A stretch of DNA of 64,000 bases from a virus (Duplodnaviria; Heunggongvirae; Uroviricota; Caudoviricetes). Where the stretch lies: IMG/VR virus record IMGVR_UViG_3300040801_001888; one strand, given 5' to 3'. The notes under the pieces were generated by a model that saw only the letters and a list, made by a program, of their open reading frames with translations, did no database searches and was not told the origin of the DNA. The position numbers were made by a program, and so were the translations under genes. Positions 1,400-62,101 of this stretch are shown here, in pieces; the first letter of the stretch is position 1, and every line of letters starts with the position of its first letter.

Positions 1400-3052
1400 A
1401 TGCCGTGGGCAATCAAAGCTGGTGGTGGCGGACTTCGTCAAAAGGTGTCCAACATCGAGTTCGTCGAGAACGTGTGGGTCCGGATCGGCGTGCTCGCATC
1501 CGGGCAGGCAGTCGAGCTGGACGTCGAGTCTGGACACGGTCTCGTGGCGCACGGTATTACTCGTATTTCGCTCGGCAACTGGGGTGGCGCCAAGGGACCA
1601 TCGCTAGTGGTGCTTGGGCAATCCGGCGAGCCGATGCTCACTGGTGTTCGCTTGATCGATGGTGGGGCTGACTCGTCCCTCGTGGAATTGCGTGTCGGCG
1701 GTGCACCCAGTGGGTTGTCTGTCAAAAGCGTGGTCGTGACTGGCGAGTCTAGGATCAATGGGTTCACTTTCCAGTCGCCTGAGTTCATCGCGTCACCGGG
1801 GGGTACCGCGCTTGCTACATTCGCGGTAGCCTCGACCGACATGTTGATCAGCCAGTACAGCGGCGAACAACCGTTCCGCGTAGACGAAGAAGGTAGAGCG
1901 TGGTTCGGTAGTAAAACCCGGCAGATGCTCAATCTGTACGGGGACAGCTACAGCGCCGGCGTCCAATCCAGCACGCTCTACCAGCGATCTGGCGGAAACT
2001 TCAGCTGGCATAAAGGTGGCGTGCATAGTGATGCCTCACGCGATCCCGGAGCTGGTGGCGTCGAGCAGATGTGCTTGGACACGAATGGCGATTTGACAGT
2101 TGCTCGTCGCACATTGAACAAAGCTGCGCGTACCTCGCCTTCTGATCGCGAACTAATCGAATCGGCGTACTTGAACAGTCGTCTGCCGGTTGCTACCCCG
2201 CAACAAATAGTTCAATTCGATCTTGTCTCTGGTTCAAACAACAACTGGATCGAGGCTTTTCGGTTTAGGTCTGCGGGGTGGGGCAACTATTTCTTATTTT
2301 GGGTGTTTTCAGGTTACTACGGGAATTCTAGCTCACCTGTAGAATCGTGGTACGGTATAGGCTACCGTGGATCTAACCTATACGGGTGGGTATTATCTAC
2401 GCTTGCACATCACAGACGGGACGGTGCCTTCAGTCGCGTTGCGTTCAGCGGTGACGGTAATACTACCGGAACCAGTTATTTATCTCTCCAAAAAAGAGCA
2501 AGCGCGGGCTACCCTATAATCGCTGGAATGACCCAGCTTGGCGCGAGCAGGGTTGCCATGGACACAAGCGAGTCTGGTCGTGTCGTCGGTGGGTCTCCTC
2601 CTGGGACTCCAGTAGTACAGGTTGCACTTTCGTCCCGTGATAGTGATCGTTTCGGTTTTGCCAGCGAGAACCATTTCGACGGCGTCACTGACGGTGGCAA
2701 GCGCAAGATTCGAGGCTACCAGCGCGACCCGTGCGAGGTGCTCGGCGCGATTACCGATCCGACCGTTTACGACCGGCTGATGAAGGACGACCCCAGCGTG
2801 GAGGTAGGCTTCCCGCGTATGCGCGAGGACATCAACCGCTACAATGCCGAACGCGCATTGGAGGCGCTAGAGGATGCCCTGCTGCGCCGTATGGTCCGCA
2901 CACCAGGCGCAATCGTCGTGCCGAGGCAGCACGAGGCCGTGGAGTGGTTGGAGGACATCGTAGCGAACCCGCCGCGTGATCGGTACATCTCGCCAGCCGA
3001 CTACCTGGAGAAAGGCATCGACATTACCGATGAGCACCAGTTCTCGCTATGA
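1400..3052 (+). CDS. tail fibre / tailspike-like protein
   Basis: 550-aa Gly/Ser/Thr-rich beta-type composition; AGGAG-like RBS (ggagaacagattcATG); internal lower-GC patch around 2,200-2,520. Confidence 0.5.
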   Translation: MPWAIKAGGGGLRQKVSNIEFVENVWVRIGVLASGQAVELDVESGHGLVAHGITRISLGNWGGAKGPSLVVLGQSGEPMLTGVRLIDGGADSSLVELRVGGAPSGLSVKSVVVTGESRINGFTFQSPEFIASPGGTALATFAVASTDMLISQYSGEQPFRVDEEGRAWFGSKTRQMLNLYGDSYSAGVQSSTLYQRSGGNFSWHKGGVHSDASRDPGAGGVEQMCLDTNGDLTVARRTLNKAARTSPSDRELIESAYLNSRLPVATPQQIVQFDLVSGSNNNWIEAFRFRSAGWGNYFLFWVFSGYYGNSSSPVESWYGIGYRGSNLYGWVLSTLAHHRRDGAFSRVAFSGDGNTTGTSYLSLQKRASAGYPIIAGMTQLGASRVAMDTSESGRVVGGSPPGTPVVQVALSSRDSDRFGFASENHFDGVTDGGKRKIRGYQRDPCEVLGAITDPTVYDRLMKDDPSVEVGFPRMREDINRYNAERALEALEDALLRRMVRTPGAIVVPRQHEAVEWLEDIVANPPRDRYISPADYLEKGIDITDEHQFSL

Positions 3053-8800: not shown

Positions 8801-9589
8801 ATGGCGGCACCTAATTCCTACACGCCCAATCTCGGGCGGGTAGTGACCGAATTCATCAAGCCGAAGCGGGACGTGAACACCGTGTTCATCCACTGTACCG
8901 CGACTGATAACCCAACGTTTGATGCAAAGGCTTGCCACAACCTTCACGTCGATAGTAACGGCTGGAGCGCGATTGGCTACCACATGATCATCACCAGCGA
9001 TGGGTACAAAGACGGCGTTCAGATTCAATACGGACGTGACCTGGAGAGAACCCCGGCATCCCAATCGGGCTACAACGAGGGTACTATCGCCATTTCGTTG
9101 AATGGTCTGACTCTGAGCAAGTTCGGTCCGAACCAGCTTGACCAGCTTCGCTGGATTTGCGGCGAGATCAACAGTGCCTACGGTGGCAGGATGGAGTTTC
9201 GCGGGCACCGCGAAGTTTCCGCTAAAGAATGCCCCGTCATTGACTACCGCAAAGAACTCGGCCTCGATTCCGCTGGCTTCATGACTGGCGCCGCAGCACC
9301 GGGCGAGCCGCCGAAATCGCACATCCCAATGGTCGACATCATGGTCGCCGCCGCCCAGATCGGTTTGCACGATCATCATCCGCATGTGATCGTCTTGCGC
9401 GCACTTCTGGTACGCTACGGTGCTAGCAAAGACGCCCTCTTCCCGATCCGCGATAAGGAGTACCTGATGAAGTTCGACGACATCGTAAACGACGCCACCA
9501 AAGGCTTTCAGCGCGAGCAAGGTCTCGTTGATGACGGCATTGTTGGGCGTTCCACATGGGAGCGACTCCTTGATGTCGGTGATGACTAA
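8801..9589 (+). CDS. endolysin: N-acetylmuramoyl-L-alanine amidase (Amidase_2/PGRP, T7-lysozyme type) with a C-terminal peptidoglycan-binding domain
   Basis: VFIHCTATDNP...GWSAIGYHMII...YNEGTIAISLNG...GHREVSAKECP is the Amidase_2 zinc-amidase signature; the C-terminus VLRALLVRYGASKD...DDGIVGRSTWERLL matches a PG_binding_1-like repeat. Confidence 0.8.
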   Translation: MAAPNSYTPNLGRVVTEFIKPKRDVNTVFIHCTATDNPTFDAKACHNLHVDSNGWSAIGYHMIITSDGYKDGVQIQYGRDLERTPASQSGYNEGTIAISLNGLTLSKFGPNQLDQLRWICGEINSAYGGRMEFRGHREVSAKECPVIDYRKELGLDSAGFMTGAAAPGEPPKSHIPMVDIMVAAAQIGLHDHHPHVIVLRALLVRYGASKDALFPIRDKEYLMKFDDIVNDATKGFQREQGLVDDGIVGRSTWERLLDVGDD

Positions 9590-9914
9590 AATGTTGTTCC
9601 CGGTCGGGCTCGCTGCCGCCATCGGGCTGTTCGCGTTGAGCAGCCAGGCTTGGCCTGAACTGGTCAAGCTGAAGGTGTGCGACGCCGTGTCCAACGAAAC
9701 ACTTGCACAGCTGTACGGCAGCGAGGCACTGAAAACGTCCGGGCGCTATTTTTGGGTCAATCCTGAAGACATCCAGCTGATGGTTCCGTCGGAGAATAAG
9801 GGATGCACTCGCGTCAATCTATCCAACGGTCGTCAACTGAAGGTGCAAGGCTCCCCGGATTTTGTTTATTGCGAGATGTATCACAGCCCACTGTGTAAGA
9901 GTGAACAACCATGA
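9582..9914 (+). CDS. signal-peptide/TM protein, possible lysis accessory (spanin- or holin-like)
   Basis: N-terminal hydrophobic segment MLFPVGLAAAIGLFALSSQAW, then a Cys-containing soluble part; overlaps the endolysin stop. The start is ambiguous (ATG at 9,573, 9,582 or 9,591). Confidence 0.4.
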   Translation: MTKMLFPVGLAAAIGLFALSSQAWPELVKLKVCDAVSNETLAQLYGSEALKTSGRYFWVNPEDIQLMVPSENKGCTRVNLSNGRQLKVQGSPDFVYCEMYHSPLCKSEQP

Positions 9915-33489: not shown

Positions 33490-35573
33490 TCCTTACGATA
33501 TCTCTTTGATGTGTAGCCCGATGCACCCAAGAAGAAGCGGTCATCAAGCCAGTCAGGTAATGTTGTCATGTATCCGATTAGCCTGTCAAGTGCTTTAGTG
33601 TCTGTTTCATCACACATTGAGAATATTTCATCGTAGCAGTCTCCGACCACCTCCAAACCTGGATCGGCGTTCGCCTGTTTGAGACCGACCCACAGAATGT
33701 CTCGGCATAACCCCTGAACCAAATTCTCAAAAAATTTCGGCCCTCGGGTATCTACTCGCCGCCAAGCATTGCCCGGGGCGTTCTGGTCAATGCCCATGTA
33801 GCTGATCGAATCCGCTGTGAACGGGTCTTTGTCGGGTAGGTGGATGACCCGCCCATACTCAATCTCAGGCCGGTAGTAACTGAGGTAGCGCCCGGACGGC
33901 AGCTTCATGAACAGGAAAGTACCGTCATAGCGGAACGTCGTGCAGCGGTGTCTGTGATAGTCATACTCTCGATAGGTAACGCCGAAACGTCCTTCAGTCT
34001 CCCCCCGTACCGCTTTTGCGGCGAGGGCGTGGAACTCTCGACCGGGGTTCTCGATGGCGGCAATGGCCGCGCTCTGGAGTTGTTTCCAATAGTGCGGGAT
34101 CTCGTGGTAGAGGGTTCTGAAGGTGCGTATTTGTCGTTCCGCTTCTTCTAGTTCAATCTCAACGCCCATGCCGGCGCCATACCCGACAAGCCCGCGCCCA
34201 GAGAGGCCATAAGATGCGCCGAGAACACTTGGTTTATAGTAAGTCCGTTGCGCCTTGGTCACTTCTTCATAATCAATGCCTTCCGCTTCAGCGGCGAAGC
34301 TCTTGTAGGTATCCCTGCCAGCGAAGAAGATGTCCAGGATCGTGTCACAACCCGCTACCCAAGCCGCCCCCACGGACTCGATCGACGACAAGTCAGCCAC
34401 ACACCACAACTTACCCTCGGGTGCCTTAAGCATTGCCCGGATGCAGCTGGACAGCGTGTCGAGCACCGATCCTGGAAACATGATCTCCAGCAAGTCTTTG
34501 TCGCCGAACCGAAGCCATTCGGCGGTGGCTTCCGGATAAGGTATTGCGGGCCTGGGCAGGTTCGCCGGGTTCAGCGTTCGCCCGGCGACGCGCCCGGTGC
34601 GGCTGGCGCCGTAGAACTGCCAACCGCCGCGCAGGTTCCCGTCGTCGCTGGTGGCGGCGTTCAATGCAGCGTACTTCTTGACGGAGGACTTGTTCAGCGC
34701 TTGGCGCAGCTCAAGCACCTCGCGGACGGCAACGGGCGTCTCGGGATCATCGACGGCGTCGCGGACCGTTGCCTTGGTCAGATCCGGGAGCGGCGCATAG
34801 GGCATCTTCTGGTTGACCCATCCCAGCATCTGATCGCGGCTGTTCGGGTTGGGCAGGCCCGTCTTATGGCGCAGGGTCTCCATCAGCTCTTCCTGCTCCT
34901 GCGCGATGATCTCCAGCGCGCCGGTGACCGCTTGCTTATCGATCGGGATGCCCCGGCGGTTGATCTCACGATAGATCAGCTCCTGCTCGAGGACTTTCCG
35001 GACGCTCGGCACACGCCATCCCTGAGTCAACCACTGCATGCACCAGCGCAGCAGGTCGCGCTCAACGCGCACGTCATTACCGCAGTAGCGGACGAACTCG
35101 TCCCACAGATCCGGGGATTCATGCCACGCCTTTTTCAGGGAGGAGAACGTGCTGATGCACAGTGATCCCTTGGGGTTCTTCTCGACTTCCAGCGGGGTCT
35201 GCGACAGGACGTCCGCCAGGCGACCGGCAAAGCCCAGCTGGTACGCGCAGACGAGCACGTCGATCCAGCGTTCCGACGGCGTCGGGTAGCCCATGCGCGC
35301 CAGTCCCGCGCGGTCGAACTCGCAGTTGGCGGCGGCGAGCATGACGGACGGGTCAGTGAGGGCGTCCTCGACCCATGCCGGGAGGCGCTCACCCGCCGCC
35401 TCGTGGTCGAAGACGTGGACGTCATCGGTGCCGTGGAGCCAACCAACGCCAGTCATGAAGACTCGCGTGCCGGGGTCGTCCCAGTACCTGAACTGACCTT
35501 CCTTTTTGATGTCGCAGGGAGACCCCGTCTCGATGTCCACGACGAGTATGCGGGGTAGGTTGGTCGGGCTCAT
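33486..35573 (-). CDS. DNA polymerase I (family A) with 3'-5' exonuclease domain
   Basis: Exo I motif ILVVDIETGS; Pol A motifs (...RTYYKPSVLGASYG..., ...YMGIDQNAP...); 695 aa. Confidence 0.9.
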   Translation of the reverse strand: MSPTNLPRILVVDIETGSPCDIKKEGQFRYWDDPGTRVFMTGVGWLHGTDDVHVFDHEAAGERLPAWVEDALTDPSVMLAAANCEFDRAGLARMGYPTPSERWIDVLVCAYQLGFAGRLADVLSQTPLEVEKNPKGSLCISTFSSLKKAWHESPDLWDEFVRYCGNDVRVERDLLRWCMQWLTQGWRVPSVRKVLEQELIYREINRRGIPIDKQAVTGALEIIAQEQEELMETLRHKTGLPNPNSRDQMLGWVNQKMPYAPLPDLTKATVRDAVDDPETPVAVREVLELRQALNKSSVKKYAALNAATSDDGNLRGGWQFYGASRTGRVAGRTLNPANLPRPAIPYPEATAEWLRFGDKDLLEIMFPGSVLDTLSSCIRAMLKAPEGKLWCVADLSSIESVGAAWVAGCDTILDIFFAGRDTYKSFAAEAEGIDYEEVTKAQRTYYKPSVLGASYGLSGRGLVGYGAGMGVEIELEEAERQIRTFRTLYHEIPHYWKQLQSAAIAAIENPGREFHALAAKAVRGETEGRFGVTYREYDYHRHRCTTFRYDGTFLFMKLPSGRYLSYYRPEIEYGRVIHLPDKDPFTADSISYMGIDQNAPGNAWRRVDTRGPKFFENLVQGLCRDILWVGLKQANADPGLEVVGDCYDEIFSMCDETDTKALDRLIGYMTTLPDWLDDRFFLGASGYTSKRYRKD

Positions 35574-35824
35574 CGGTTGTAGTAGTAGTCCGTGCGAGAC
35601 TGGCTGCCGTCCGGATAGGTCGTCACCAGCGAGCTGGTAGGGCGATCGCCGTCGTCACTGAGGGCGGCGAGCCCGCCGACGAGAATGGCAGCGAACAAGA
35701 TGCCCACGACGGCTCGCCCGCCGTCGGTCAGTTCGGTCCGGGTGCCGCCGTTGCCATCAGGCACAGTGGCGCAACCGACCAGCGCCACGGACAGCGCCAG
35801 GGCGGGTAGAAGTCGAGATTTCAT
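35570..35824 (-). CDS. lipoprotein
   Basis: Signal peptide with lipobox MKSRLLPALALSVALVGC; 4-nt overlap with the polA start. Confidence 0.5.
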   Translation of the reverse strand: MKSRLLPALALSVALVGCATVPDGNGGTRTELTDGGRAVVGILFAAILVGGLAALSDDGDRPTSSLVTTYPDGSQSRTDYYYNR

Positions 35825-41198: not shown

Positions 41199-42065
41199 CT
41201 ACGGGTTGGTGATGTGGCCCATATTCATGGGCGTAGACAGGGTCTGAAACGGCATGTAGACCACGTCGGTCTCGTCCGGTCTGATGTTGTTCATCGTGCT
41301 TTCGGCTACCTGCAATCGCCGATGTTCCAGCAGCAATGGTGTCAGCGATTCTGCGATGATCTTGTTGCCGTCGGCAATGGCGTTAGCCTCGGCGATCTTG
41401 GCTTTATATTCAGCCGCCGCGACTTTTTCCCGTGCTTCTGCTTTGGTCACGTCAATCTCAGCTTGCGCCAATGCCTCCGCTACCTGCATCTGCCGCGCGG
41501 ACGCCTTGTCGATGGCGTCCTTCACCACCTGGGGGTAGTCCATTTTTCCGACAGAGACCGATTCCAGAACGATCGGCAAGTTTTCGGTGCGAGCCTTGAT
41601 CTCTTCGGTCACAGACGCGGCGAGGGCTTGGTAATTCGCCGGCACCTCCATCGCGTTGAACTTCGAGACGGCGGCGCGCGTGCCTTCGCGTATCTCCGGC
41701 AGCATGTAAATGCTGTAGATTTGGTCGTAACTCAGCACGTCGTTGTCGGGCAAGCTGATCGTATTGAACATGGCATTGAGCACGTCCTCACTGCCTTCGA
41801 TTCGCCCACGGGTGCGGACGTCCACGGTGAGGTCTTGACCGTCGCTGAGCTTTGCCGGGATGTCTTCCGTCACGGTGTTCGTACTGGTCTCCAGGAAGAC
41901 CAGCTTGCCGCGCCATCCAGGCCAATGCCGCCCGACCCCGAGGATCTCCTCGGTGTACCCACCAGGCGTCAGGACTTTCGCCTGGAATCCAGGCTGAACG
42001 ACTTCGCCGCACCCTTGCAAGGTAAATGCTGCCGCGCAGCACAACAGGACCGCTTTAATTCTCAT
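41199..42065 (-). CDS. SPFH/band-7 (prohibitin/stomatin-like) lipoprotein
   Basis: Lipobox AAAFTLQGC; SPFH-like core then a C-terminal coiled coil (AEALAQAEIDVTKAEAREKVAAAEYKAKIAEANAI). Confidence 0.65.
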   Translation of the reverse strand: MRIKAVLLCCAAAFTLQGCGEVVQPGFQAKVLTPGGYTEEILGVGRHWPGWRGKLVFLETSTNTVTEDIPAKLSDGQDLTVDVRTRGRIEGSEDVLNAMFNTISLPDNDVLSYDQIYSIYMLPEIREGTRAAVSKFNAMEVPANYQALAASVTEEIKARTENLPIVLESVSVGKMDYPQVVKDAIDKASARQMQVAEALAQAEIDVTKAEAREKVAAAEYKAKIAEANAIADGNKIIAESLTPLLLEHRRLQVAESTMNNIRPDETDVVYMPFQTLSTPMNMGHITNP

Positions 42066-42378
42066 TGATGATTCTCCAGTTTTCTTCAGTTTTGGCTTCC
42101 AGCGCCTTCATCCGGTCTTTACCGGCGGGCACATGGACGCGTTCTACGGGGGGTTCTTCTGTGAGAGGCTGCCGCCACGATGCTGCCGGGTCTGGCCTAA
42201 TTTCGGCGTACCGTAACGGTGTGAATATTAGTTGCAGAACATACAACACGATTATGAGTAGTGAAAGGTCATACCTCTTATGGTTGATGGAAAGATACAG
42301 TAATGCGATAGCTATTACTGTGATCATGACGCTGACGTATAGGTGAACGCCAGCCAGGGTGAACGGTGTATCAAGCAT
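42055..42378 (-). CDS. small integral membrane protein (possible partner of the SPFH protein)
   Basis: 107 aa with two TM helices (VHLYVSVMITVIAIALLYL / LSLLIIVLYVLQLIF); 11-nt overlap with the SPFH gene. Confidence 0.45.
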   Translation of the reverse strand: MLDTPFTLAGVHLYVSVMITVIAIALLYLSINHKRYDLSLLIIVLYVLQLIFTPLRYAEIRPDPAASWRQPLTEEPPVERVHVPAGKDRMKALEAKTEENWRIINEN

Positions 42379-42384
42379 GCTGCT

Positions 42385-42699
42385 CTACTGCCAATCCAGA
42401 CCGGGGAGATATTCCGCCGAGGTGCGCGACGCGCAGACCAAGCATCGCGAGTTATCTTGCGCTGCTTTACTCGCCAGAGCACGCAACGCGCAAGCGGGGC
42501 AGGATGCACACGCGTTGGAAACAACAGCTAAAAGGTAACGCTCCAAGAGGACGCCGGCCGATTGCTCAACAGGCAGTTCGGAAATAGCGGCGACTTGCGC
42601 CAGCGCGGTGACTTGCGCCAGCGCGGTGACGGTGACCTCCGCCATGCCGTCGATTGTGCGAAGAAGCTCTTCAGAGATATGGTCTTCTCTCTTGTTCAT
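42385..42699 (-). CDS. hypothetical Cys-rich protein
   Basis: Probable start at the MNKRED methionine; contains CASCPAC...CLVCASR. Confidence 0.3.
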   Translation of the reverse strand: MNKREDHISEELLRTIDGMAEVTVTALAQVTALAQVAAISELPVEQSAGVLLERYLLAVVSNACASCPACALRALASKAAQDNSRCLVCASRTSAEYLPGLDWQ

Positions 42700-42754
42700 G
42701 ATGGTGTCTTCTAGTAGTGGACGTGCGGGGCGTCCATTCCCCCTGAAACGGCGC

Positions 42755-43066
42755 CTAGGAAAGGAGGTTGGTTCTCGGCGGCATGCTGGTGGGTCCACCG
42801 GTGTCCCTTTCCTCCTCGAACCGGGGCTCGGGCTCTACCTCGATCAGGTTCGGCTCATCAAAGTGCTCCGTAGACATTGGCGTGCCGTCGTCCTTCAGCT
42901 TCTGCGGTTTGACGCCGTATGTGTTGCAGTTCGTCAGCCACTGCGACCGGCAGACGATGACGCCTTCGAACCCGGTTATCTGGTCTCGCACGACATGCCC
43001 CAGCTTGAACTTAAAGTCTCGGCCCGGCTCAGCATCCGTTGATTTGTTGAATAGTTTGTTCATCAT
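42755..43066 (-). CDS. hypothetical protein
   Basis: 103-aa ORF. Confidence 0.35.
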   Translation of the reverse strand: MMNKLFNKSTDAEPGRDFKFKLGHVVRDQITGFEGVIVCRSQWLTNCNTYGVKPQKLKDDGTPMSTEHFDEPNLIEVEPEPRFEEERDTGGPTSMPPRTNLLS

Positions 43067-43545: not shown

Positions 43546-45609
43546 CTAGACCGCTTGTTTCGGGTCGACAATGACGGTCAGCGGTCGACCATCGGTCCGC
43601 AGGTGGATCGTCGCATCACGCGTCTCGGCGAAGCCCAGTCCGCTAAGCTGCTCCGCAGTGGGCTGGATCGCCATCCGCCCGGCGAGCACCTCGAATACCT
43701 TGCGATGCTCTCGGAGGTCCGGGCGCAGGAACTCGTTATAGAATCCCGGCACGGTCTCGTCGGTCCGGCACTTGTCGATCAGCAGCATCCAGTGCTTGTT
43801 GCCACTGGCTTTCCCGCGCCAGTAGTTCGGGCTCAACGTGATGATGTTGACCTCGTGGTAGGCGTCGAGGGCGAGACCCCACTGTTCCGCTACCGCCGGA
43901 CCACTGGTCTCGGAGACGCCTCGCTCAACCCGGAAGTCCGTGACCTCACCGCCTTTGATGGTCATCACGGCTACTTTGGCGGTCGCTCCTGACGTCCTTG
44001 GCGACTCGACCATCGACAGGTGGCGCGTCTGCCCATCGATCTCGATCTCGATCTCGAAGCCGGAGTCGATGCGCTCGCGACGCGTGAAGTTGACGACCGC
44101 GATGCGGTAGTCGCCATCGGGCATGACCTTCTGCCAAGTGACGTTCTCGACAGCATTCCTGACGGGCTTGGCTACGTTCATGTCGACGTCTAACTCGCCT
44201 TTGCTCAACTCCCCCCGCTTGTCGTGGTAGAAGATGTGCTCTTGCCTCCCGGAATTATTCGCCGGAAAGTAGAGAACGTGCAGGTCCAGGTCGTCGGTGT
44301 TGTGCCACGACAAGCTGACCCGTCCCCAGCCGGTGACGTTACCTCCGGCACGCTTCACGCGCTCCTTGATCGAGTCCGTGACGCCGCCCCGGTAGGACCA
44401 CGCGATGGGCGAGCCCCATGCCAGCAGCGACGGCGCCTCCGGGTTCTGGGCGGTGGTCAACGTGACCAGGTTGCTGACCAACGGCGGTTGGAACAGCACC
44501 TCCAGCTTCCGGCACTCGCGCTCCTGGAGCACCTGCGGCAGGTGCTGGATCGGCACGATCTCTCCGTGCGTGGCAGTCGGGCGGCGCCGACGCGGAGCAG
44601 CGATATCGCCGGCGAGAATGTCATCGATCGTCTGGCGCATCTTAGGCGCGGTCGAGCGATTGACGAACAGCACGTCGGCGACGCTCAGGTCCGCCTCAGT
44701 CGCTAGGCGGCGCGGCAGGCTATCCAGCAGGCCAAGCTCGGTGATCGTGTCTTGCGCCTTGCTGACCATCATTGCGCTGATCGCTGCCGACGAGCGCTGA
44801 TAGTTGCCCGGTGCGACGATCCGCTCATAGACCCGGACGGCGTCGTCGAGGTTCACGGCTTCCGAGATGCTCACGAGCAGCGTGCCGATCGAGCTGTTGC
44901 GCAGTAGCAGACGGTGGTCGAACACGCGGCTCCAGACGTAGCGCTCACGCTGCCAAGAGCCCGACGGCAACGCCTCGTAGGCGATGCTAGCGTCGAGTAG
45001 CGCCTGCACAGAGTCTCTGTTCTGTGCGCCACGGTACAGTCCGTTGTCGATCAGCTCGAGCAGCGTGCGGATGTGCGTGCTGTTGATCTCCGCCAGCGTC
45101 CGCGCGATGACTCCAGCATTGGTCTCGATCGGCCCCTGCTTGTTGCGCGGGATAGGCGCGAACCGTGCGCGCGGGATCTCACAATGGAAGTGATGCCATG
45201 CGATCTCGCCGCCGTCGGCTGCCTCGTACGTGACCTCCGCGCCGGCCTTGCGCTCCTTCGAGAAGAACACCGTGCGGATCGCCGCCTGGGAGACGAGATC
45301 ATGCAGCGCCTTCGCGACGGTACGGTAGGGCTCGGGCAGACGATCGTAGCCGGACCAGATGGTCTCCAGGGTCAAGGCAGGCGTGATCGCAACAACGTTG
45401 CCCATCTGCTTGATGAAGCCCCTGCAGCAGGAGCAATCGTGCTCGGTACGCTCGCGGAACAGCGGGTCAGTACCGGGCGGGAACGCACCGAGGTAGGTGG
45501 TCCAAAGATCGTCACCGGACACGTCAGCGACGTAGGGCGTACCGCTCATAATGCGGTCGGCGGATCGGCGGACGTTATCGGCGAACAGCGTGAATTGATC
45601 GGTAGACAT
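43546..45609 (-). CDS. large early protein of unknown function
   Basis: 687 aa with HDCSCCRGF near the N-terminus; no P-loop or other recognisable catalytic signature; strong coding-like composition. Confidence 0.5.
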   Translation of the reverse strand: MSTDQFTLFADNVRRSADRIMSGTPYVADVSGDDLWTTYLGAFPPGTDPLFRERTEHDCSCCRGFIKQMGNVVAITPALTLETIWSGYDRLPEPYRTVAKALHDLVSQAAIRTVFFSKERKAGAEVTYEAADGGEIAWHHFHCEIPRARFAPIPRNKQGPIETNAGVIARTLAEINSTHIRTLLELIDNGLYRGAQNRDSVQALLDASIAYEALPSGSWQRERYVWSRVFDHRLLLRNSSIGTLLVSISEAVNLDDAVRVYERIVAPGNYQRSSAAISAMMVSKAQDTITELGLLDSLPRRLATEADLSVADVLFVNRSTAPKMRQTIDDILAGDIAAPRRRRPTATHGEIVPIQHLPQVLQERECRKLEVLFQPPLVSNLVTLTTAQNPEAPSLLAWGSPIAWSYRGGVTDSIKERVKRAGGNVTGWGRVSLSWHNTDDLDLHVLYFPANNSGRQEHIFYHDKRGELSKGELDVDMNVAKPVRNAVENVTWQKVMPDGDYRIAVVNFTRRERIDSGFEIEIEIDGQTRHLSMVESPRTSGATAKVAVMTIKGGEVTDFRVERGVSETSGPAVAEQWGLALDAYHEVNIITLSPNYWRGKASGNKHWMLLIDKCRTDETVPGFYNEFLRPDLREHRKVFEVLAGRMAIQPTAEQLSGLGFAETRDATIHLRTDGRPLTVIVDPKQAV

Positions 45610-46520: not shown

Positions 46521-47222
46521 TCAGCGGCGGCTAATCGGAGAGGCCGCTGGCGTTGACCTGCGCTGCCCAATCATGGACTTACGTTTGTTTGAACGCTCGC
46601 GCGCTAAGCCAGGGTTGCCTTTCCAGGAGGATTCGTAGCTCTCCGGCAAACGGGCTTTTTTGACCTTTATGGCGTAAATCAGCTTCGGAACCACTGTCTT
46701 GCGCGTGTGCTTAGCTTTTAGCCCGCCGCTCCCTTTCTCCTGGGCGTGTTGTTTCGTGTTCCCCTTGGTGACCCCGAGAAAGGTCCAGTTGTCCGCGAGG
46801 TAGAGCGTACCTAGTCGATCGGATTGCCCGTCGCGGCGTTCCTCAATAATGAAGGTCTCGAACCCGGCGACCTTCACGCCGTAAAGGTACTCCCAGTCCC
46901 ACGCGATCCGCTTGCGCCAAGCGGACAAGATGCGCGTGGCTCTGTTTGGCGCGGGCACCTCGAGCCTGAAAACGTTGTTACTGATGATCCCGTTCAGCTG
47001 CACTTGCTTGACCGCTTTGCTTTTGCTGAGACCGAAAAAACGATCGCGCGGACCGACGTCGTACGTTGCGCTGGCGCCGCTGATGATGCCGACCAGCTCG
47101 CCGCTGTCAAACGCCAGGTAATGCAGTTGCTGACCGTGGCATCCGCTGTTAGGGATGTAGTGTCGGTCTCGGATCGACTTATAGCGCGGGTCGGTGCGCT
47201 TAACACATTCAAGTTCAATCAT
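46521..47222 (-). CDS. R-M-operon-associated protein of unknown function (basic C-terminal tail)
   Basis: 233 aa; 4-nt overlap with the REase-like gene; C-terminal ~80 aa are Lys/Arg-rich; no DPPY/NPPY motif. Confidence 0.45.
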   Translation of the reverse strand: MIELECVKRTDPRYKSIRDRHYIPNSGCHGQQLHYLAFDSGELVGIISGASATYDVGPRDRFFGLSKSKAVKQVQLNGIISNNVFRLEVPAPNRATRILSAWRKRIAWDWEYLYGVKVAGFETFIIEERRDGQSDRLGTLYLADNWTFLGVTKGNTKQHAQEKGSGGLKAKHTRKTVVPKLIYAIKVKKARLPESYESSWKGNPGLARERSNKRKSMIGQRRSTPAASPISRR

Positions 47223-48100
47223 TGTTGCTCTCGATAGAACCCTGTCGGTACGCTCCTAACTGTCAGCGACCCACCAAACGCGCCGGGTTTTATATTGCTT
47301 TTCATGTGGCTACGCCACTGCAACGTAAACCCAGAGGAGGTCAAAGAGATAATGTGCAACGGCTTCTGAACGCTGCCGCGCGTCTCTATAACTACGTCCT
47401 GTTGCGGCAGGGGGATTTTGCGGCAGTTGAGGGAGCCGTGAAAGTTGTACCCGTCTATCATAGCGCCGTCGCTTCCCCCTATGAGTAGGTAGTGGTCGGT
47501 ATGCCCTAACGCGGCACGGAATATCTGAATGAGGTCTTGGCGCCTCCTCAGTTCTTTCTCTATGATAGTGACCGCTACGATCTCCGCTATCGTGCGTTGG
47601 GGCGGGACGTTTTTGGAGTAGCGCCCCTTTTGGTCTTCCAAGAACCAGAGAATCGACTGTATGTCGTTTCGATATTGGGGGCTGGTTTCCAACTCGCCAG
47701 GGAACGGGAGATAATCAATGTTCTCTTGACGTATTCGGTGCCCCGCCACTTCGCGGCTGTTGTGCTTGACCGAGCACGGTACTTCGCGTCCCCCGCTGCC
47801 GTAGCAAGTGATGTCGGCGAAATTGTGGTTTTGCCCTGTCAGCTTCACAGTGTGAATATCAGGCTCTTTATTCAATAGCTTTTCAGCAAGCCATTTCGCC
47901 TGTTCACGCATCCGTCTACGGCGAGCAAACGCCGCCTTGACGCCCTTGTCGTCTTTTGCCAACCCTGGCATTGATCTCACGGCGTAAAGAACCGACGATA
48001 GCCTAGCATCGCGGATTAGCTTGACCCCGGGTTGCTTGCTAATTGCAAACGCTACTGCGTACTCCATTGCCAGTCCGTTCGATACTCTTATCTGGTTCAT
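47219..48100 (-). CDS. candidate type II restriction endonuclease
   Basis: ~293 aa from MNQIRV; its ATG overlaps the TGA of the Dam-like MTase (ATGA); lower GC than neighbours; size and position consistent with a DpnII/MboI-like partner of a GATC methylase, but no motif proves nuclease identity. Confidence 0.5.
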   Translation of the reverse strand: MNQIRVSNGLAMEYAVAFAISKQPGVKLIRDARLSSVLYAVRSMPGLAKDDKGVKAAFARRRRMREQAKWLAEKLLNKEPDIHTVKLTGQNHNFADITCYGSGGREVPCSVKHNSREVAGHRIRQENIDYLPFPGELETSPQYRNDIQSILWFLEDQKGRYSKNVPPQRTIAEIVAVTIIEKELRRRQDLIQIFRAALGHTDHYLLIGGSDGAMIDGYNFHGSLNCRKIPLPQQDVVIETRGSVQKPLHIISLTSSGFTLQWRSHMKSNIKPGAFGGSLTVRSVPTGFYREQQ

Positions 48101-48903
48101 TCTTCTGCGCCTCTGCTGAGGATGATAACCTCGGCGCCGTCTTTCTCCGCGCTCATGCCGTACTTCCACTCCTTCGGGATCGAACGCAGACCCGCGTACA
48201 GCTTACGGACTTGCTCGCAGTCGTTGTAGCTCAGCACCCAACGCACGCCGTGCATGTCGAGCTTGCGCAAGATGTTGCTGAGCTTTAGGTGGTTGAAGTC
48301 GTCCCCGTGGGCGCTGCCCTTGTCACCATACAGCTTGTTCTTGCCGTTGGTCAGCAGATAGGGCGGGTCCAGGTAGATCGTCGCTGGGGCGGCGAACCGA
48401 AGCGGGCGGCGGCGCAGGCTATCGAACGCATCGGCTGACCCGAACGACAACCCCGGCGGCGGGACAAAGTCGGCGAGGCGCTCCAGCGCGCTTTCGGTAT
48501 AACGGTCAGCAGACCCCATGCCGCCTGATAGCGTCGTGCCGGAAAAGGAACTGCGGTTGACGGCGTAGAACCAGCACGCTTGCTGGAATGGCGTCCCGTA
48601 TCCAGCGCGCAGTTGATTCTGCGCCAATGCGAACATGTCCTTGTCCATGGGGAAGAAGCGCCGGCGCAGGTAGCTCGCCATCGCCGGTCCCTGCCCAGCG
48701 AAGACCTGCTTCCAGAAGTTGACGAGGGGCTGGAAGGCGTCGCGAGCGACAACCTTGCCGTTGGGGTTTGCCGCAAGCCAGGCAAACTCAACCGCGCCGC
48801 CACCAAAGAAGGGGCTGTAGAGCGTCGTCGTGTCTACGGGAATCAGTGGTAGGATCTTGGTCGTGGCGCGTTGCTTGCCGCCGGGGTAGCGTAGAAGGCA
48901 CAT
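48097..48903 (-). CDS. Dam-like (D12-class) DNA N6-adenine methyltransferase
   Basis: N-terminus MCLLRYPGGKQR (RYPGGK AdoMet motif of the Dam/DpnM family) and catalytic DPPY (IYLDPPYLL); 268 aa. Confidence 0.85.
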   Translation of the reverse strand: MCLLRYPGGKQRATTKILPLIPVDTTTLYSPFFGGGAVEFAWLAANPNGKVVARDAFQPLVNFWKQVFAGQGPAMASYLRRRFFPMDKDMFALAQNQLRAGYGTPFQQACWFYAVNRSSFSGTTLSGGMGSADRYTESALERLADFVPPPGLSFGSADAFDSLRRRPLRFAAPATIYLDPPYLLTNGKNKLYGDKGSAHGDDFNHLKLSNILRKLDMHGVRWVLSYNDCEQVRKLYAGLRSIPKEWKYGMSAEKDGAEVIILSRGAEE

Positions 48904-59423: not shown

Positions 59424-59924
59424 TTAGATTGTGGACATGTACGCGCGGAGGGATTTTGTTGATGTCAGGACGCGGACCTCGCGTTTCGTGGTGTGGCACC
59501 ACGTTAACGCGCCATCGCGCACGCCATCCCCCAGAACTACCAAAACAGGCTCCATTGTCGGCGCGATGGCTTCCAGTGACAGTAGCCAGAACGGGAGCTT
59601 CTCATCAACGCTTCCCGATGTCCCCTGGTACTTCATTTCGATCAGCACTGGGCGGTTCCCCGCCTTGAACGGCGCGACGACGAAGTCCGCCTTGAACGGC
59701 GCTTTGTAGATCGATTGGTATGCTGGGATTTGCGTGTAGAAGAAACCCGGCTTGACTAGTAGCACCGGGTCAGCGCCGGCGTTGCACGCCAGAACCACGC
59801 TGGTGCGGTCTTTTCCCTCCGCCTCTTGGTACCCTCGGGCAAGCAGGTGGTCGTGGATGATCTGCTCGCCGAGGCGCCCTGATGTGTTGGCATGCACGCC
59901 TCCGTCTGGTTTTTGGCGGCTCAT
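59424..59924 (-). CDS. small PD-(D/E)XK-like nuclease candidate
   Basis: ...KADFVVAPFKAGNRPVLIEMKYQ... fits the D-x(n)-E-x-K core; 4-nt overlap with the upstream MTase gene. Confidence 0.45.
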   Translation of the reverse strand: MSRQKPDGGVHANTSGRLGEQIIHDHLLARGYQEAEGKDRTSVVLACNAGADPVLLVKPGFFYTQIPAYQSIYKAPFKADFVVAPFKAGNRPVLIEMKYQGTSGSVDEKLPFWLLSLEAIAPTMEPVLVVLGDGVRDGALTWCHTTKREVRVLTSTKSLRAYMSTI

Positions 59925-60574
59925 CGGTTGGCGCTCCTGTCGCGCTTCTGGATTGAGTCCACGTAACCCATGAATGGGAAGTGGGCTTTGCCCCGCGTGC
60001 CTGTTGCACCCTCAAACGCTTCGCGGGCGCGTCGTTGCGAGTCCCTTCTGTCAAGGCTTCTGTCGAAGAACAGTATCGATTGGCCCCTCGTGTTGCCCGA
60101 GACCTTTTTGCCGTCGACGTTCTCGAAAGCGATGCGTCCGAAGGGCATACAAACCGCAGTCAGGTACTCACAGTCGCGCAAGGATTTGTACCAAACCGTT
60201 TCCGTAGCGTTGTTGACTAGGACCACACCACGTTCGAAGTGTCCTGATTCCAGGTGTGCTACGAACGCCTGGATGGCGCCGTGCACCACGCCCCGCCCAT
60301 AAGGAGGGTTCATAAAGACGGTCCGCGCATGCGGCCATGGGGTGCGGATGGCGTCGTCGTCCTTGGTGTAGAACTGTTCAGCGTGAACGCCCCCTGGACG
60401 ATTGTTGGCGGCGATGCTGGAGAACGGGTCGAAGTCAATCGACCCGCGCTTCCTATCCAGCGCCCACCGAACGCGGGCGATGATGTCGGCTGGCGTGAAC
60501 CAGGAGTCGCTGTCCCGATTTTCGCCAGGCTTAGCGCCGATGTAGGCGAGTTTGTTTTTGTCTGCGATGTTCAA
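59921..60574 (-). CDS. phage-type DNA N6-adenine methyltransferase (T1/Dam PF05869-like), TTG start
   Basis: SWFTP and NPPYG (motif IV) in a 217-aa protein; RBS aagagg 8 nt upstream of the TTG. Confidence 0.7.
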   Translation of the reverse strand: MNIADKNKLAYIGAKPGENRDSDSWFTPADIIARVRWALDRKRGSIDFDPFSSIAANNRPGGVHAEQFYTKDDDAIRTPWPHARTVFMNPPYGRGVVHGAIQAFVAHLESGHFERGVVLVNNATETVWYKSLRDCEYLTAVCMPFGRIAFENVDGKKVSGNTRGQSILFFDRSLDRRDSQRRAREAFEGATGTRGKAHFPFMGYVDSIQKRDRSANR

Positions 60575-60597: not shown

Positions 60598-60632
60598 GTT
60601 CACATTTGTGAACAGACACAAACTGATGTGTC
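60598..60632. promoter_or_regulatory. two adjacent palindromic operator-like sites upstream of the TTG start of the phage Dam gene
   Basis: GTTCACATTTGTGAAC (perfect 7-2-7) and GACACAaactgatGTGTC (6-6-6). Confidence 0.45.
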
Positions 60633-60671
60633 GAGACAAGCATAGTGTAACGAAGACAAAGAACGCAAGCA

Positions 60672-60708
60672 GCAAAAAAGCCCCGATCGCATCGCTGCGA
60701 TCGGGGCT
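60672..60708 (-). terminator. rho-independent terminator (leftward) upstream of the MTase-nuclease cassette
   Basis: GCCCCGATCGCATCGCTGCGATCGGGGC (near-identical to the 59,383-59,410 hairpin) followed on the minus strand by T6; a second hairpin (CCCCGGTGC...GCGACCGGGG) lies at 60,731-60,760. Confidence 0.55.
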
Positions 60709-60793
60709 TGATCTGGTGCTACAATGCGAAACCCCGGTGCACTACGAATGCGACCGGGGCTTCTCCCTCAACACCTCACAGACAGGTATCAAG

Positions 60794-61459
60794 ATGCTTC
60801 CCATCTTAGCAGACACGTCAGTCTCCATGAACAGCCGCGAGATCGCGGAGCTGGTCGATTCTCGCCATGACAGCGTTAAGCGTGCTGTTGAGCGCCTCGC
60901 CGAAAGAGGAGTTATCACCCAGCCACCGACGGTGGATGGGATGAAATCAGCAAACGGCGTGATCGAAAAGCTCTACGTCTTCGACCAGGCGCACAAACGC
61001 GATTCCATCGTGGTGGTGGCACAGCTAAGCCCTGAGTTCACCGGCAAGCTGGTGGATCGCTGGCAAGAGTTAGAGGCGGGGGCTAAGCCGGTCGCCCTCT
61101 CAACCGGCGCTTTTCTGCTCCAGCAGGCGCAGATGCTCTACGAGATGGAACAGCGCCAGGCAGCAGCTGAGCAGCGCCAGGCGGCGACCGAGCAGCAGGT
61201 TGCGAAGATCACGGAGCGGGTCCAGCAGACGGAGACGGCGGTCGACTACTTCAGCGTGATTGGTTACCACCGTTACGTGCGGCGTGACGGTGATCTGACG
61301 CTGCCCCAGGCACAAGCCATGGGTAAGACGGCGACCGGATATTGCCGGGACCACGGCGTGCCTATGGCCGAGACCCCGGACCCCCGCTTCGGACGGGTCA
61401 ATACCTATCCGAAGTGGGTTCTTGACCACCTGTTCGGACCTGAGCAGTCCGCGCTGTAG
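60794..61459 (+). CDS. Rha-family phage regulatory protein
   Basis: MNSREIAELVDSRHDSVKRAVERL matches the conserved Rha N-terminal motif; start chosen downstream of the tandem minus-strand terminators that lie in the annotated 5' extension. Confidence 0.5.
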   Translation: MLPILADTSVSMNSREIAELVDSRHDSVKRAVERLAERGVITQPPTVDGMKSANGVIEKLYVFDQAHKRDSIVVVAQLSPEFTGKLVDRWQELEAGAKPVALSTGAFLLQQAQMLYEMEQRQAAAEQRQAATEQQVAKITERVQQTETAVDYFSVIGYHRYVRRDGDLTLPQAQAMGKTATGYCRDHGVPMAETPDPRFGRVNTYPKWVLDHLFGPEQSAL

Positions 61460-61516: not shown

Positions 61517-62101
61517 CTAGATCCTGGTCGGCATCAGCAGGCTGTGGATGTCGGCGCAGCCCTTGCCGCACCACTCGACCTTGATCGGGTCACTCGCGTC
61601 CCTCGCGAAGTGCAAGATCGACGTGGCGTTCAGTGCCTCGGCAACGCCGGACAGCTTGGTGAAGTCAAGCCCGACCCGGTCGATGGCGCCAGCTCGGTGC
61701 ACCTGCATGGCGATTCGGCGCCAGTCGGGGAACGCATGCACTCCCCTATCCTCCACGCGCGGCAGGACCACTTGTCGCGCCTTGCGGTTGCTCAGGATGT
61801 CAGCCTTGCCCGTCGCGGTGTCCAGGCGCACCAAGACATTGTGCGGGTCTACACGGGGCGCCAGGTTGATCGGCGCAAAGTTGGTCGACTCGTGCGCGGC
61901 GTCACTTAAGTCGACAATGCCGCTGATGAATACCTCTGCCCAGGTCATCTGGGAGCCGTCGGTGGCGACGAGCGTAACCTTGCCGTCTGCGGCCGTAGTC
62001 GTGTCGACGTGCAGGTTGTGCAGGTACGGGCGCACATCGCCCGGGGCGGCGCAAGCGGCGAACAGGGCACGCAGGATGTGGTAGTGGACTTCAATGATCA
62101 T
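61517..62101 (-). CDS. small protein with sliding-clamp (DnaN N-terminal domain)-like pattern
   Basis: MIIEVHYHILRALFAACAAPGDVRPYLHNLHVD...DGKVTLVATDG loosely parallels the beta-clamp domain I pattern; weak evidence. Confidence 0.35.
   Translation of the reverse strand: MIIEVHYHILRALFAACAAPGDVRPYLHNLHVDTTTAADGKVTLVATDGSQMTWAEVFISGIVDLSDAAHESTNFAPINLAPRVDPHNVLVRLDTATGKADILSNRKARQVVLPRVEDRGVHAFPDWRRIAMQVHRAGAIDRVGLDFTKLSGVAEALNATSILHFARDASDPIKVEWCGKGCADIHSLLMPTRI

Follow-up and report, generated by a model that had tools for sequence, protein, structure and literature searches.

An SPFH/Band-7 lipoprotein gene of a tailed phage and its overlapping, co-conserved gene for a small two-helix membrane protein

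The DNA analyzed here (the window) is a stretch of 64,000 nucleotides (nt) from a member of the Caudoviricetes, IMG/VR record IMGVR_UViG_3300040801_001888. It carries two overlapping minus-strand genes, which encode a protein of 107 amino acids (aa) with two hydrophobic helices (hereafter the partner) and a 288-aa SPFH/Band-7 protein with a lipobox (hereafter the SPFH protein). Both open reading frames (ORFs) and their 11-nt overlap had been reported in an initial annotation made from the sequence alone, and the coordinates were confirmed exactly from the ORF list (Table 1); the shared nucleotides are 42055–42065. Since a GGAG motif lies inside the partner gene and the two ORFs overlap, the SPFH gene is probably translationally coupled to the partner. 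Copies of both proteins, identical or 69–78% identical, were found on independent metagenome contigs, and identical copies of the locus lay on contigs reaching 76 kb. These independent copies, together with the same architecture in 22 distinct loci (described below), indicate that the pair does not consist of chance ORFs. A 284-aa ORF on the opposite strand (41214..42068, +) was rejected as a shadow ORF of the high-GC SPFH gene.

Table 1. Features of the gene pair and its surroundings, in positions of the window.
Feature	Position	Strand	Basis and remarks
Partner gene, 107 aa	42055..42378	-	ORF list
Partner transmembrane hairpin, residues 8–51; predicted N-out/C-out, cytoplasmic K/R loop H33-K34-R35	42226..42357	-	Positive-inside rule
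Partner periplasmic tail, residues 59–107, with terminal amphipathic helix	42058..42204	-	Predicted; 38-homologue alignment, AlphaFold2
GGAG Shine-Dalgarno sequence for SPFH gene	42074..42077	-	Read in sequence; within partner 3' end, 8 nt before SPFH ATG
SPFH/Band-7 lipoprotein gene, 288 aa	41199..42065	-	ORF list; Band_7, PHROG 200, AlphaFold2, Foldseek
Lipoprotein signal peptide, residues 1–19; lipobox L16-Q17-G18-C19 at 42009–42020	42009..42065	-	Sequence; +2 residue is Gly
SPFH alpha/beta domain, residues 21–176	41538..42005	-	AlphaFold2; first strand at residues 21–23
Long helices CC1 (179–240, continuous, 62 residues) and CC2 (243–259)	41289..41531	-	AlphaFold2
GC-rich hairpin, 9-bp perfect inverted repeat CTGGGCCGG / CCGGCCCAG, 6-nt loop	41166..41189	.	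10 nt past SPFH stop; U-tract on neither strand
Endolysin, Amidase_2 and PG_binding_1	8801..9589	+	Pfam domains

The pair is phage-encoded, as had been stated, with tail, tape-measure, endolysin, DNA polymerase and helicase genes around it. The plus strand at ~1–26 kb carries the tail fibre, tape-measure and central-fibre genes and the endolysin. The minus strand at ~27–54 kb carries genes for helicases, a MazG-like pyrophosphatase, a deoxynucleoside monophosphate kinase, thymidylate synthase, an HNH endonuclease, a family-A DNA polymerase, a single-stranded DNA-binding protein, an exonuclease, a Dda-like helicase and methyltransferases. The pair belongs to this module for replication and nucleotide metabolism and forms the final two genes of a minus-strand run headed by a 687-aa DUF8224 protein; the amidase endolysin is 32 kb away and on the opposite strand. 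A 208-nt intergenic gap lies beyond the hairpin that follows the SPFH stop, and transcription of the unit probably ends here; in phage pf16 and Klebsiella phage Miami the annotations place a terminator right behind the SPFH gene. Terminator-like sites in the region were not commoner than in shuffled sequence, and a sigma-70 promoter scan of the region gave no match. The locus had no megablast match among phage genomes, and the DNA polymerase was at most 34% identical to any phage record, with Chi-like and BcepNazgul-like siphoviruses nearest. Judged by these comparisons, the phage is siphovirus-like and has no close sequenced relative.

The SPFH protein was matched by Pfam Band_7 (PF01145; E = 3.2e-16, 60.3 bits against a cutoff of 23.6, residues 22–210), so that the domain search bore out the SPFH-like domain named in the initial annotation. 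It was also matched by the hidden Markov model of PHROG 200, 'lipoprotein' (E = 2.9e-46, residues 2–265). A structure model was built with AlphaFold2 (AF2) from a 60-sequence alignment (predicted local distance difference test, pLDDT, 89.4). In the model the alpha/beta domain is followed by two long helices, CC1 and CC2, the first of which corresponds to the long coiled coil that had been noted. The CC1 and CC2 helices are the wall-forming parts of SPFH cages. A conserved VVYMP motif stands after CC2, and P272 is invariant. Foldseek comparison of the model with the PDB gave full-length matches (E = 5e-15 to 3e-9, 260–317 columns), in the order human prohibitin complex (E = 5e-15), stomatin, HflK/C with FtsH, erlin, QmcA-YbbJ, flotillin and major vault protein; every structurally characterized cage-forming SPFH protein was among them. 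A profile search of PDB sequences also placed prohibitin at the top (E = 1.8e-8); the aligned region extended through the coiled coil as far as the prohibitin C-terminal 'vvylP'. On the strength of the modelled fold, the SPFH protein is a member of the SPFH/Band-7 superfamily with the complete layout of a cage former, SPFH-CC1-CC2.

Prohibitin PHB1/PHB2 (PDB 8rrh, 9o9z, 9unl, 9urz) was thus the best profile and Foldseek match over the SPFH domain, CC1, CC2 and the C-terminal motif. In the mitochondrial inner membrane it faces the intermembrane space, the topological equivalent of the periplasm. It differs from the phage protein in sequence (17–20% identity) and in being a hetero-oligomer of two paralogues anchored by transmembrane (TM) helices, whereas the phage encodes one predicted lipid-anchored subunit and a non-SPFH partner.

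The E. coli HflK/HflC-FtsH complexes (PDB 7vhq, 7wi3, 9cz2) contain a bacterial, periplasm-facing SPFH cage, and the full-length similarity of the model to HflK/C in these structures raises the possibility of mimicry, in which a phage SPFH ring would capture or displace host FtsH or another membrane protease and alter membrane-protein turnover. The phage protein is predicted to lie in the same compartment as HflK/C and carries the Joint Genome Institute (JGI) automatic annotation 'regulator of protease activity HflC'; HflKC-FtsH controls lambda CII (PMC4936722), which was also counted in favour of mimicry. However, prohibitin was the better match, and identities were 15–20% (~15–16% to HflK/HflC). 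HflK/C is a heteromer of two TM-anchored paralogues that have no lipobox, and two tandem TM-anchored SPFH paralogues were not found at the locus, which holds one Band_7 gene beside a gene for a non-SPFH protein. The pair has no linked FtsH-related gene, and many carriers of the family are virulent and have no lysogeny decision to make. Mimicry of HflK/C is distinctly unlikely.

The N-terminus of the SPFH protein, MRIKAVLLCCAAAFTLQGC, consists of a positive n-region (MRIK), an h-region (AVLLCCAAAFT) and the lipobox LQGC; it matches the pattern [LVI][ASTVIQ][GAS]C and presumably fits the PROSITE lipobox pattern as well. The lipobox had been pointed out in the initial annotation, and its Cys proved to be invariant in both SPFH family alignments. 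A lipobox was present in 117 of the 119 SPFH relatives retrieved by profile search and in 118 of 129 full-length representatives of the wider SPFH clade, and on these sequences it is a clade-wide trait of the phage family. The membrane anchor of the SPFH superfamily is therefore present in variant form, a predicted lipobox replacing the TM helix or hairpin. Because the first SPFH strand begins 2 residues after Cys19, the tether is expected to be very short; the invariant P25 lies 6 residues past C19. At the +2 position the 119 relatives had Gly in 50 cases, Ser in 47 and Asp in just 5. Gly was also found there in the homologues of Erwinia phage Joad and Klebsiella phage Miami, and Gly or Ser occurs in phages of Enterobacterales, hosts in which the +2 Asp rule is established. 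Under that enterobacterial rule, Gly or Ser at +2 predicts Lol-dependent sorting to the outer membrane.

The AF2 model of the partner contained helices at residues 8–32 and 36–51 (pLDDT 84–89), a disordered stretch at 59–88, a helix at 89–106 and no beta structure. Because tblastn of the partner against phage records returned no relative even at E ≤ 1, homologues were traced by synteny and then by profile. The profile, built from 14 partners, retrieved 38 proteins of 91–115 aa. All 38 had two TM helices, an N-terminus of ~10 residues without any Lys or Arg, and a tail of ~51 residues with balanced charge; the inter-TM loop was short and averaged 4 K/R, with no more than 2 D/E. From the K/R-rich loop and the K/R-free N-terminus, the positive-inside rule puts the loop in the cytoplasm and the tail in the periplasm, and the tail is hence predicted to share a compartment with the SPFH lipoprotein. 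The conserved residues sit in the tail and not in the TM helices: R69 (42172–42174) was the sole invariant residue in the alignment of the 38 homologues and V83 was near-invariant. The partner itself had no match in Pfam, NfeD, NCBIfam or PADLOC, and no Pfam domain was found in the 38 homologues. The PHROGs of the partners are labelled 'unknown function' and not holin, and the UniRef label of the partner from phage RVTF4 is 'Holin'.

Overlapping genes for an inner-membrane protein with a periplasmic C-terminal region and for a lipoprotein of the outer-membrane type superficially resemble the i-spanin/o-spanin arrangement of two-component spanins such as lambda Rz/Rz1. The small size, two TM helices and charged C-terminus of the partner recall class II holins, in keeping with the RVTF4 label. 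A lysis function was weighed for these reasons, either as a spanin-like bridge from inner to outer membrane or as a holin/antiholin pair that times lysis. The o-spanins are roughly 60 aa long and Pro-rich, whereas the lipoprotein here has 288 aa and a bona fide SPFH fold; the i-spanins have a single N-terminal TM domain and a periplasmic coiled coil, whereas the partner has two TM helices. The predicted N-out/C-out topology of the partner is the opposite of that of class II holins (N-in/C-in), whose charged C-terminus is cytoplasmic and whose genes adjoin the endolysin gene. No holin PHROG or Pfam match was obtained for the partners, and no spanin PHROG or Pfam match for the pair. The position of the pair inside the replication module, far from the endolysin and on the other strand, makes spanin and holin roles unlikely in its own right. 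The spanin and holin readings were rejected on size, fold, predicted topology and genomic position, and a part in lysis is very improbable.

Conservation of the pair was followed across phages. The gene directly upstream of the SPFH gene encodes a 100–121-aa two-TM protein with a charged tail in PAK_P3, RVTF4, Joad and pf16. A two-TM partner of 100–125 aa lay upstream of the SPFH gene, in the same orientation, in all 22 distinct loci for which upstream DNA was available (distinct sequences, including all fetched loci, a Pseudomonas luteola locus and Klebsiella phage Miami). In 20 of them it was immediately adjacent, its end lying -17 to +64 nt from the SPFH start, and in the remaining two a very short ORF (67 aa or 47 aa) stood between the two genes. 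Reverse look-ups agreed, in that contigs fetched by partner homologues always had a Band_7 gene just downstream. The pairing seen in the window is thus conserved in related phages. Mean identity in 18 paired loci was 18% for the partner and 46% for the SPFH protein, and the two distance matrices were correlated (r = 0.74, Mantel p about 2e-4), which indicates that the two genes have been inherited together and not shuffled. No earlier description of the two-TM partner of the phage SPFH protein was found, and it appears to be newly described here.

The intervening ORF of 67 aa (L024, IMGVR_UViG_3300026484_000001, 2747..2950) has a type IV prepilin-like N-terminus, KGFTLMELV. The 47-aa ORF was seen in marine/Tara contigs L032–L035 (for example L032, 2817..2960) and may be a third component in some lineages. 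An Rnl2-type RNA ligase gene lies within ~2 kb of the pair in L001, L004, L032 and L036 (PAK_P3, pf16 and metagenomic relatives, from several myovirus lineages), and genes for salvage of nicotinamide adenine dinucleotide and phosphoribosyl pyrophosphate flank it in pf16, L036 and Miami. The recurrence of these ligase and salvage genes probably reflects synteny within lineages.

Relatives of the SPFH protein were collected with tblastn, which returned 70 phage records at 30–37% identity; in 62 of these the match spanned 80% or more of the query. The carriers included PAK_P3-like Nankokuvirus, pf16, Pseudomonas jumbo phages of ~300 kb (RVTF4, Psa21, PA1C), Erwinia phages Joad and RisingSun, Klebsiella phage Miami and Aeromonas phages. 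The homologues were annotated as lipoprotein, SPFH/band 7 protein, prohibitin family protein or hypothetical. The profile search, run on 5.8 billion proteins, gave the 119 SPFH relatives mentioned above (260–298 aa), nearly all on phage-sized contigs. An exhaustive HMMER search of 1.84 billion cluster representatives yielded only 176 clusters at E ≤ 1e-30, a number that rose to 1,836 at E ≤ 1e-3, and the phage SPFH clade is small by the former count. No relative was found when 185,579 genomes representing bacterial and archaeal species were scanned twice with sequence patterns, within the limits of such patterns. The pair was present in one Pseudomonas luteola assembly, among hypothetical genes by a RecD2-like helicase and umuDC. 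In view of this copy and of the pattern-limited scans, the clade is described as almost only, and not exclusively, phage-borne.

The SPFH protein itself is, by sequence, a divergent member of a family that has been annotated for over a decade as PHROG 200 (PAK_P3 gp41, pf16 gp165, Joad gp132, Miami gp157). It resembles the other members in length (280–298 aa), lipobox, Band_7 domain, long helix, C-terminal [VI][FY][VM]P motif and upstream two-TM partner; it differs in being just 30–37% identical to the sequenced phage homologues. The carriers infect Pseudomonas, Erwinia, Klebsiella, Aeromonas, Stenotrophomonas and marine hosts and differ in virion type, with jumbo myoviruses, PAK_P3-like and pf16-like phages and the present siphovirus-like phage among them.

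A virion-associated or entry protein acting in adsorption or DNA entry has been hypothesized for phage GIB1 (PMC13239085). The RisingSun homologue gp131 was detected by mass spectrometry (MS) with one high-confidence peptide, and SPFH proteins have been found in Eneladusvirus particle preparations. The RisingSun sample was, however, a crude lysate, and the Eneladusvirus SPFH protein has not been shown to belong to the phage SPFH clade. A Sec/Lsp signal with a lipobox would send the protein to the host envelope and not to virion assembly in the cytoplasm, and the SPFH gene lies outside the structural module in the window. A virion or entry role is the most improbable of the functions considered. 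The Pasteurella multocida prophage protein PM0222 (HflK/C-like, 25–35 kDa, in outer membrane vesicles) was considered as an experimental precedent and was set aside because its membership of the clade could not be shown; no Pasteurellaceae phage was among the SPFH tblastn matches.

The closest parallels in gene order are the SPFH-NfeD operons (E. coli QmcA-YbbJ, PDB 8z5g; B. subtilis FloT-YuaF/NfeD; S. aureus FloA-NfeD), in which a small membrane protein is likewise encoded directly upstream of, and co-transcribed with, the SPFH protein. In QmcA-YbbJ the partner is reported to join the cage at 1:1 (citing Tan et al. 2024). QmcA differs in forming a cytoplasmic, TM-anchored cage, whereas the phage SPFH protein is predicted to be periplasmic and lipid-anchored. 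The NfeD domain (PF01957) was not matched at E ≤ 1 by any of 14 partners, and the oligonucleotide/oligosaccharide-binding (OB) fold was absent from the AF2 model. The departure from NfeD pairing that had been suggested was borne out in this respect: the partner is NfeD-like in gene context and N-terminal TM helices and is not a member of the NfeD family. The pair is a variant of the operon of an SPFH protein and a small membrane partner, with a predicted lipid anchor in place of the TM helix, a tail-bearing hairpin in place of NfeD and a periplasmic in place of a cytoplasmic location, and it is not categorically new.

We propose, as a plausible reading that we hold tentatively and rate as not quite probable, that the pair encodes a periplasm-facing, lipid-anchored SPFH cage with a membrane partner acting in trans, which would fence and stabilize the envelope of the infected cell until programmed lysis. 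The partner would be an inner-membrane helical hairpin, from which a tail of ~50 residues with the invariant Arg and the terminal helix would project into the periplasm. The SPFH protein would be exported and lipid-anchored at Cys19, with its domain directly on the membrane surface. By analogy with all full-length SPFH structures solved so far, it would oligomerize through the long helices into a ring or cage on the periplasm-facing leaflet. The partner may provide in trans the TM element that the SPFH protein lacks and would in this respect be the functional counterpart of NfeD or of the TM ring in HflK/C; it would dock probably through its conserved tail. The module would be expressed with the replication genes rather than the lysis genes. 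Its likeliest job would be to wall off and stabilize a patch of the envelope, such that the membrane stays intact and energized until programmed lysis. The spread of the family over very different phages and hosts, together with the location among replication genes, favours a generic envelope role over a receptor-specific one.

Several points weigh against this proposal. The initial annotation had placed the pair in an early region, a placement that is only approximate; the pair sits in the arm for replication and nucleotide metabolism. In PAK_P3 the pair (gp40/gp41) borders the structural region and does not figure among the genes described as early: the text of the PAK_P3 paper names just gp34, 37, 38, 45 and 46 as early in that region. 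The RisingSun homologue gave a weak MS signal in a crude phage preparation, and this leaves room for virion association. The literature calls the function of the family 'poorly understood' or 'unclear'. Finally, the Gly at +2 predicts the outer membrane, which would part the SPFH lipoprotein from its inner-membrane partner unless the tail bridges the gap.

The last point allows a different arrangement, which we consider unlikely, in which the SPFH cage would be sorted to the outer membrane and sit on its inner leaflet, with its cap engaged by the ~50-residue tail of the partner. The pair would then form a phage-built trans-envelope tether that holds or reorganizes the envelope during infection. 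If so, it would provide the first known example of an SPFH scaffold on the outer membrane of a bacterium and a new type of envelope-spanning viral structure.

Superinfection exclusion, a defence function or an anti-defence function had been offered in the initial annotation as what the pair might do, and this part found no support. Neither protein of the pair matched NCBIfam or PADLOC, so that the pair is not a recognized component of a defence system; no functional study of the phage SPFH family was found in the literature. In an exclusion role, the periplasmic lipoprotein cage and the inner-membrane partner would block DNA entry or envelope penetration by a secondary phage, in the manner of T4 Imm/Sp or T5 Llp. 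Several features would suit such a role: the exclusion proteins known from other phages are lipoproteins and small proteins of the inner membrane, the predicted orientation of the complex is towards the periplasm, and the pair is placed for expression outside the late lysis cassette. Exclusion proteins are usually lineage-specific and fitted to a receptor or injection route, however, whereas this module spans many hosts and virion types. Searches of Pfam, PHROG and NCBIfam gave no homology to known superinfection exclusion proteins, and no literature link was found. Exclusion is a minority possibility, on the unlikely side.

Membrane scaffolds of the SPFH type, such as prohibitin, stomatin, flotillin and HflK/C, are universal, and structures of their cages have become available only since 2022. 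A compact two-gene module that is nearly confined to phages would be a tractable minimal system for the effects of an SPFH cage on a bacterial membrane, and it bears on the reasons for which large virulent phages so often carry one. The pair also supplies a testable annotation for hundreds of small 'hypothetical' genes beside phage SPFH genes. Should the module stabilize the membrane against premature collapse, it would be relevant to phage counter-strategies against abortive infection systems that target the membrane.

Further genes of the window were recorded. The DUF8224 protein that heads the run (43546..45609, -) was matched by phrog_1735 (E = 8e-187) and is a large, uncharacterized protein widely conserved in phages. 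The ORF directly upstream of the partner (42385..42798, -) contains the tandem peptide repeat VTALAQVTALAQV and had no family match; the JGI annotation of it is shorter, at 104 aa. A 233-aa protein (46521..47222, -) was matched by Pfam DruA, a Druantia defence protein (E = 2.7e-14, 53 bits against a cutoff of 27), and had no PHROG match; a DruA homologue in the replication arm of a phage could be a decoy, an anti-defence gene or an ancestral form. An 84-aa ORF, MKSRLLPALALSVALVGC (35570..35824, -), shares 4 nt with the start of the DNA polymerase gene. Besides a lipobox it has a second hydrophobic helix around residues 38–54; it had no Pfam or PHROG match and resembles a unimolecular spanin or an exclusion lipoprotein in its predicted architecture. 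In the lysis region (8801..9914, +) a 128-aa ORF comes after the endolysin gene and overlaps it. This ORF contains an internal Met and a hydrophobic segment at its N-terminus and may encode a holin or a spanin; no clear lipoprotein o-spanin was seen near the endolysin. Two DNA methyltransferases, an Ant-like anti-repressor and a RusA-like resolvase are encoded at 48097..48903 (-), 59921..60574 (-), 60608..61459 (+) and 61517..62101 (-), and with these genes the phage may be temperate or at least equipped with anti-restriction functions.

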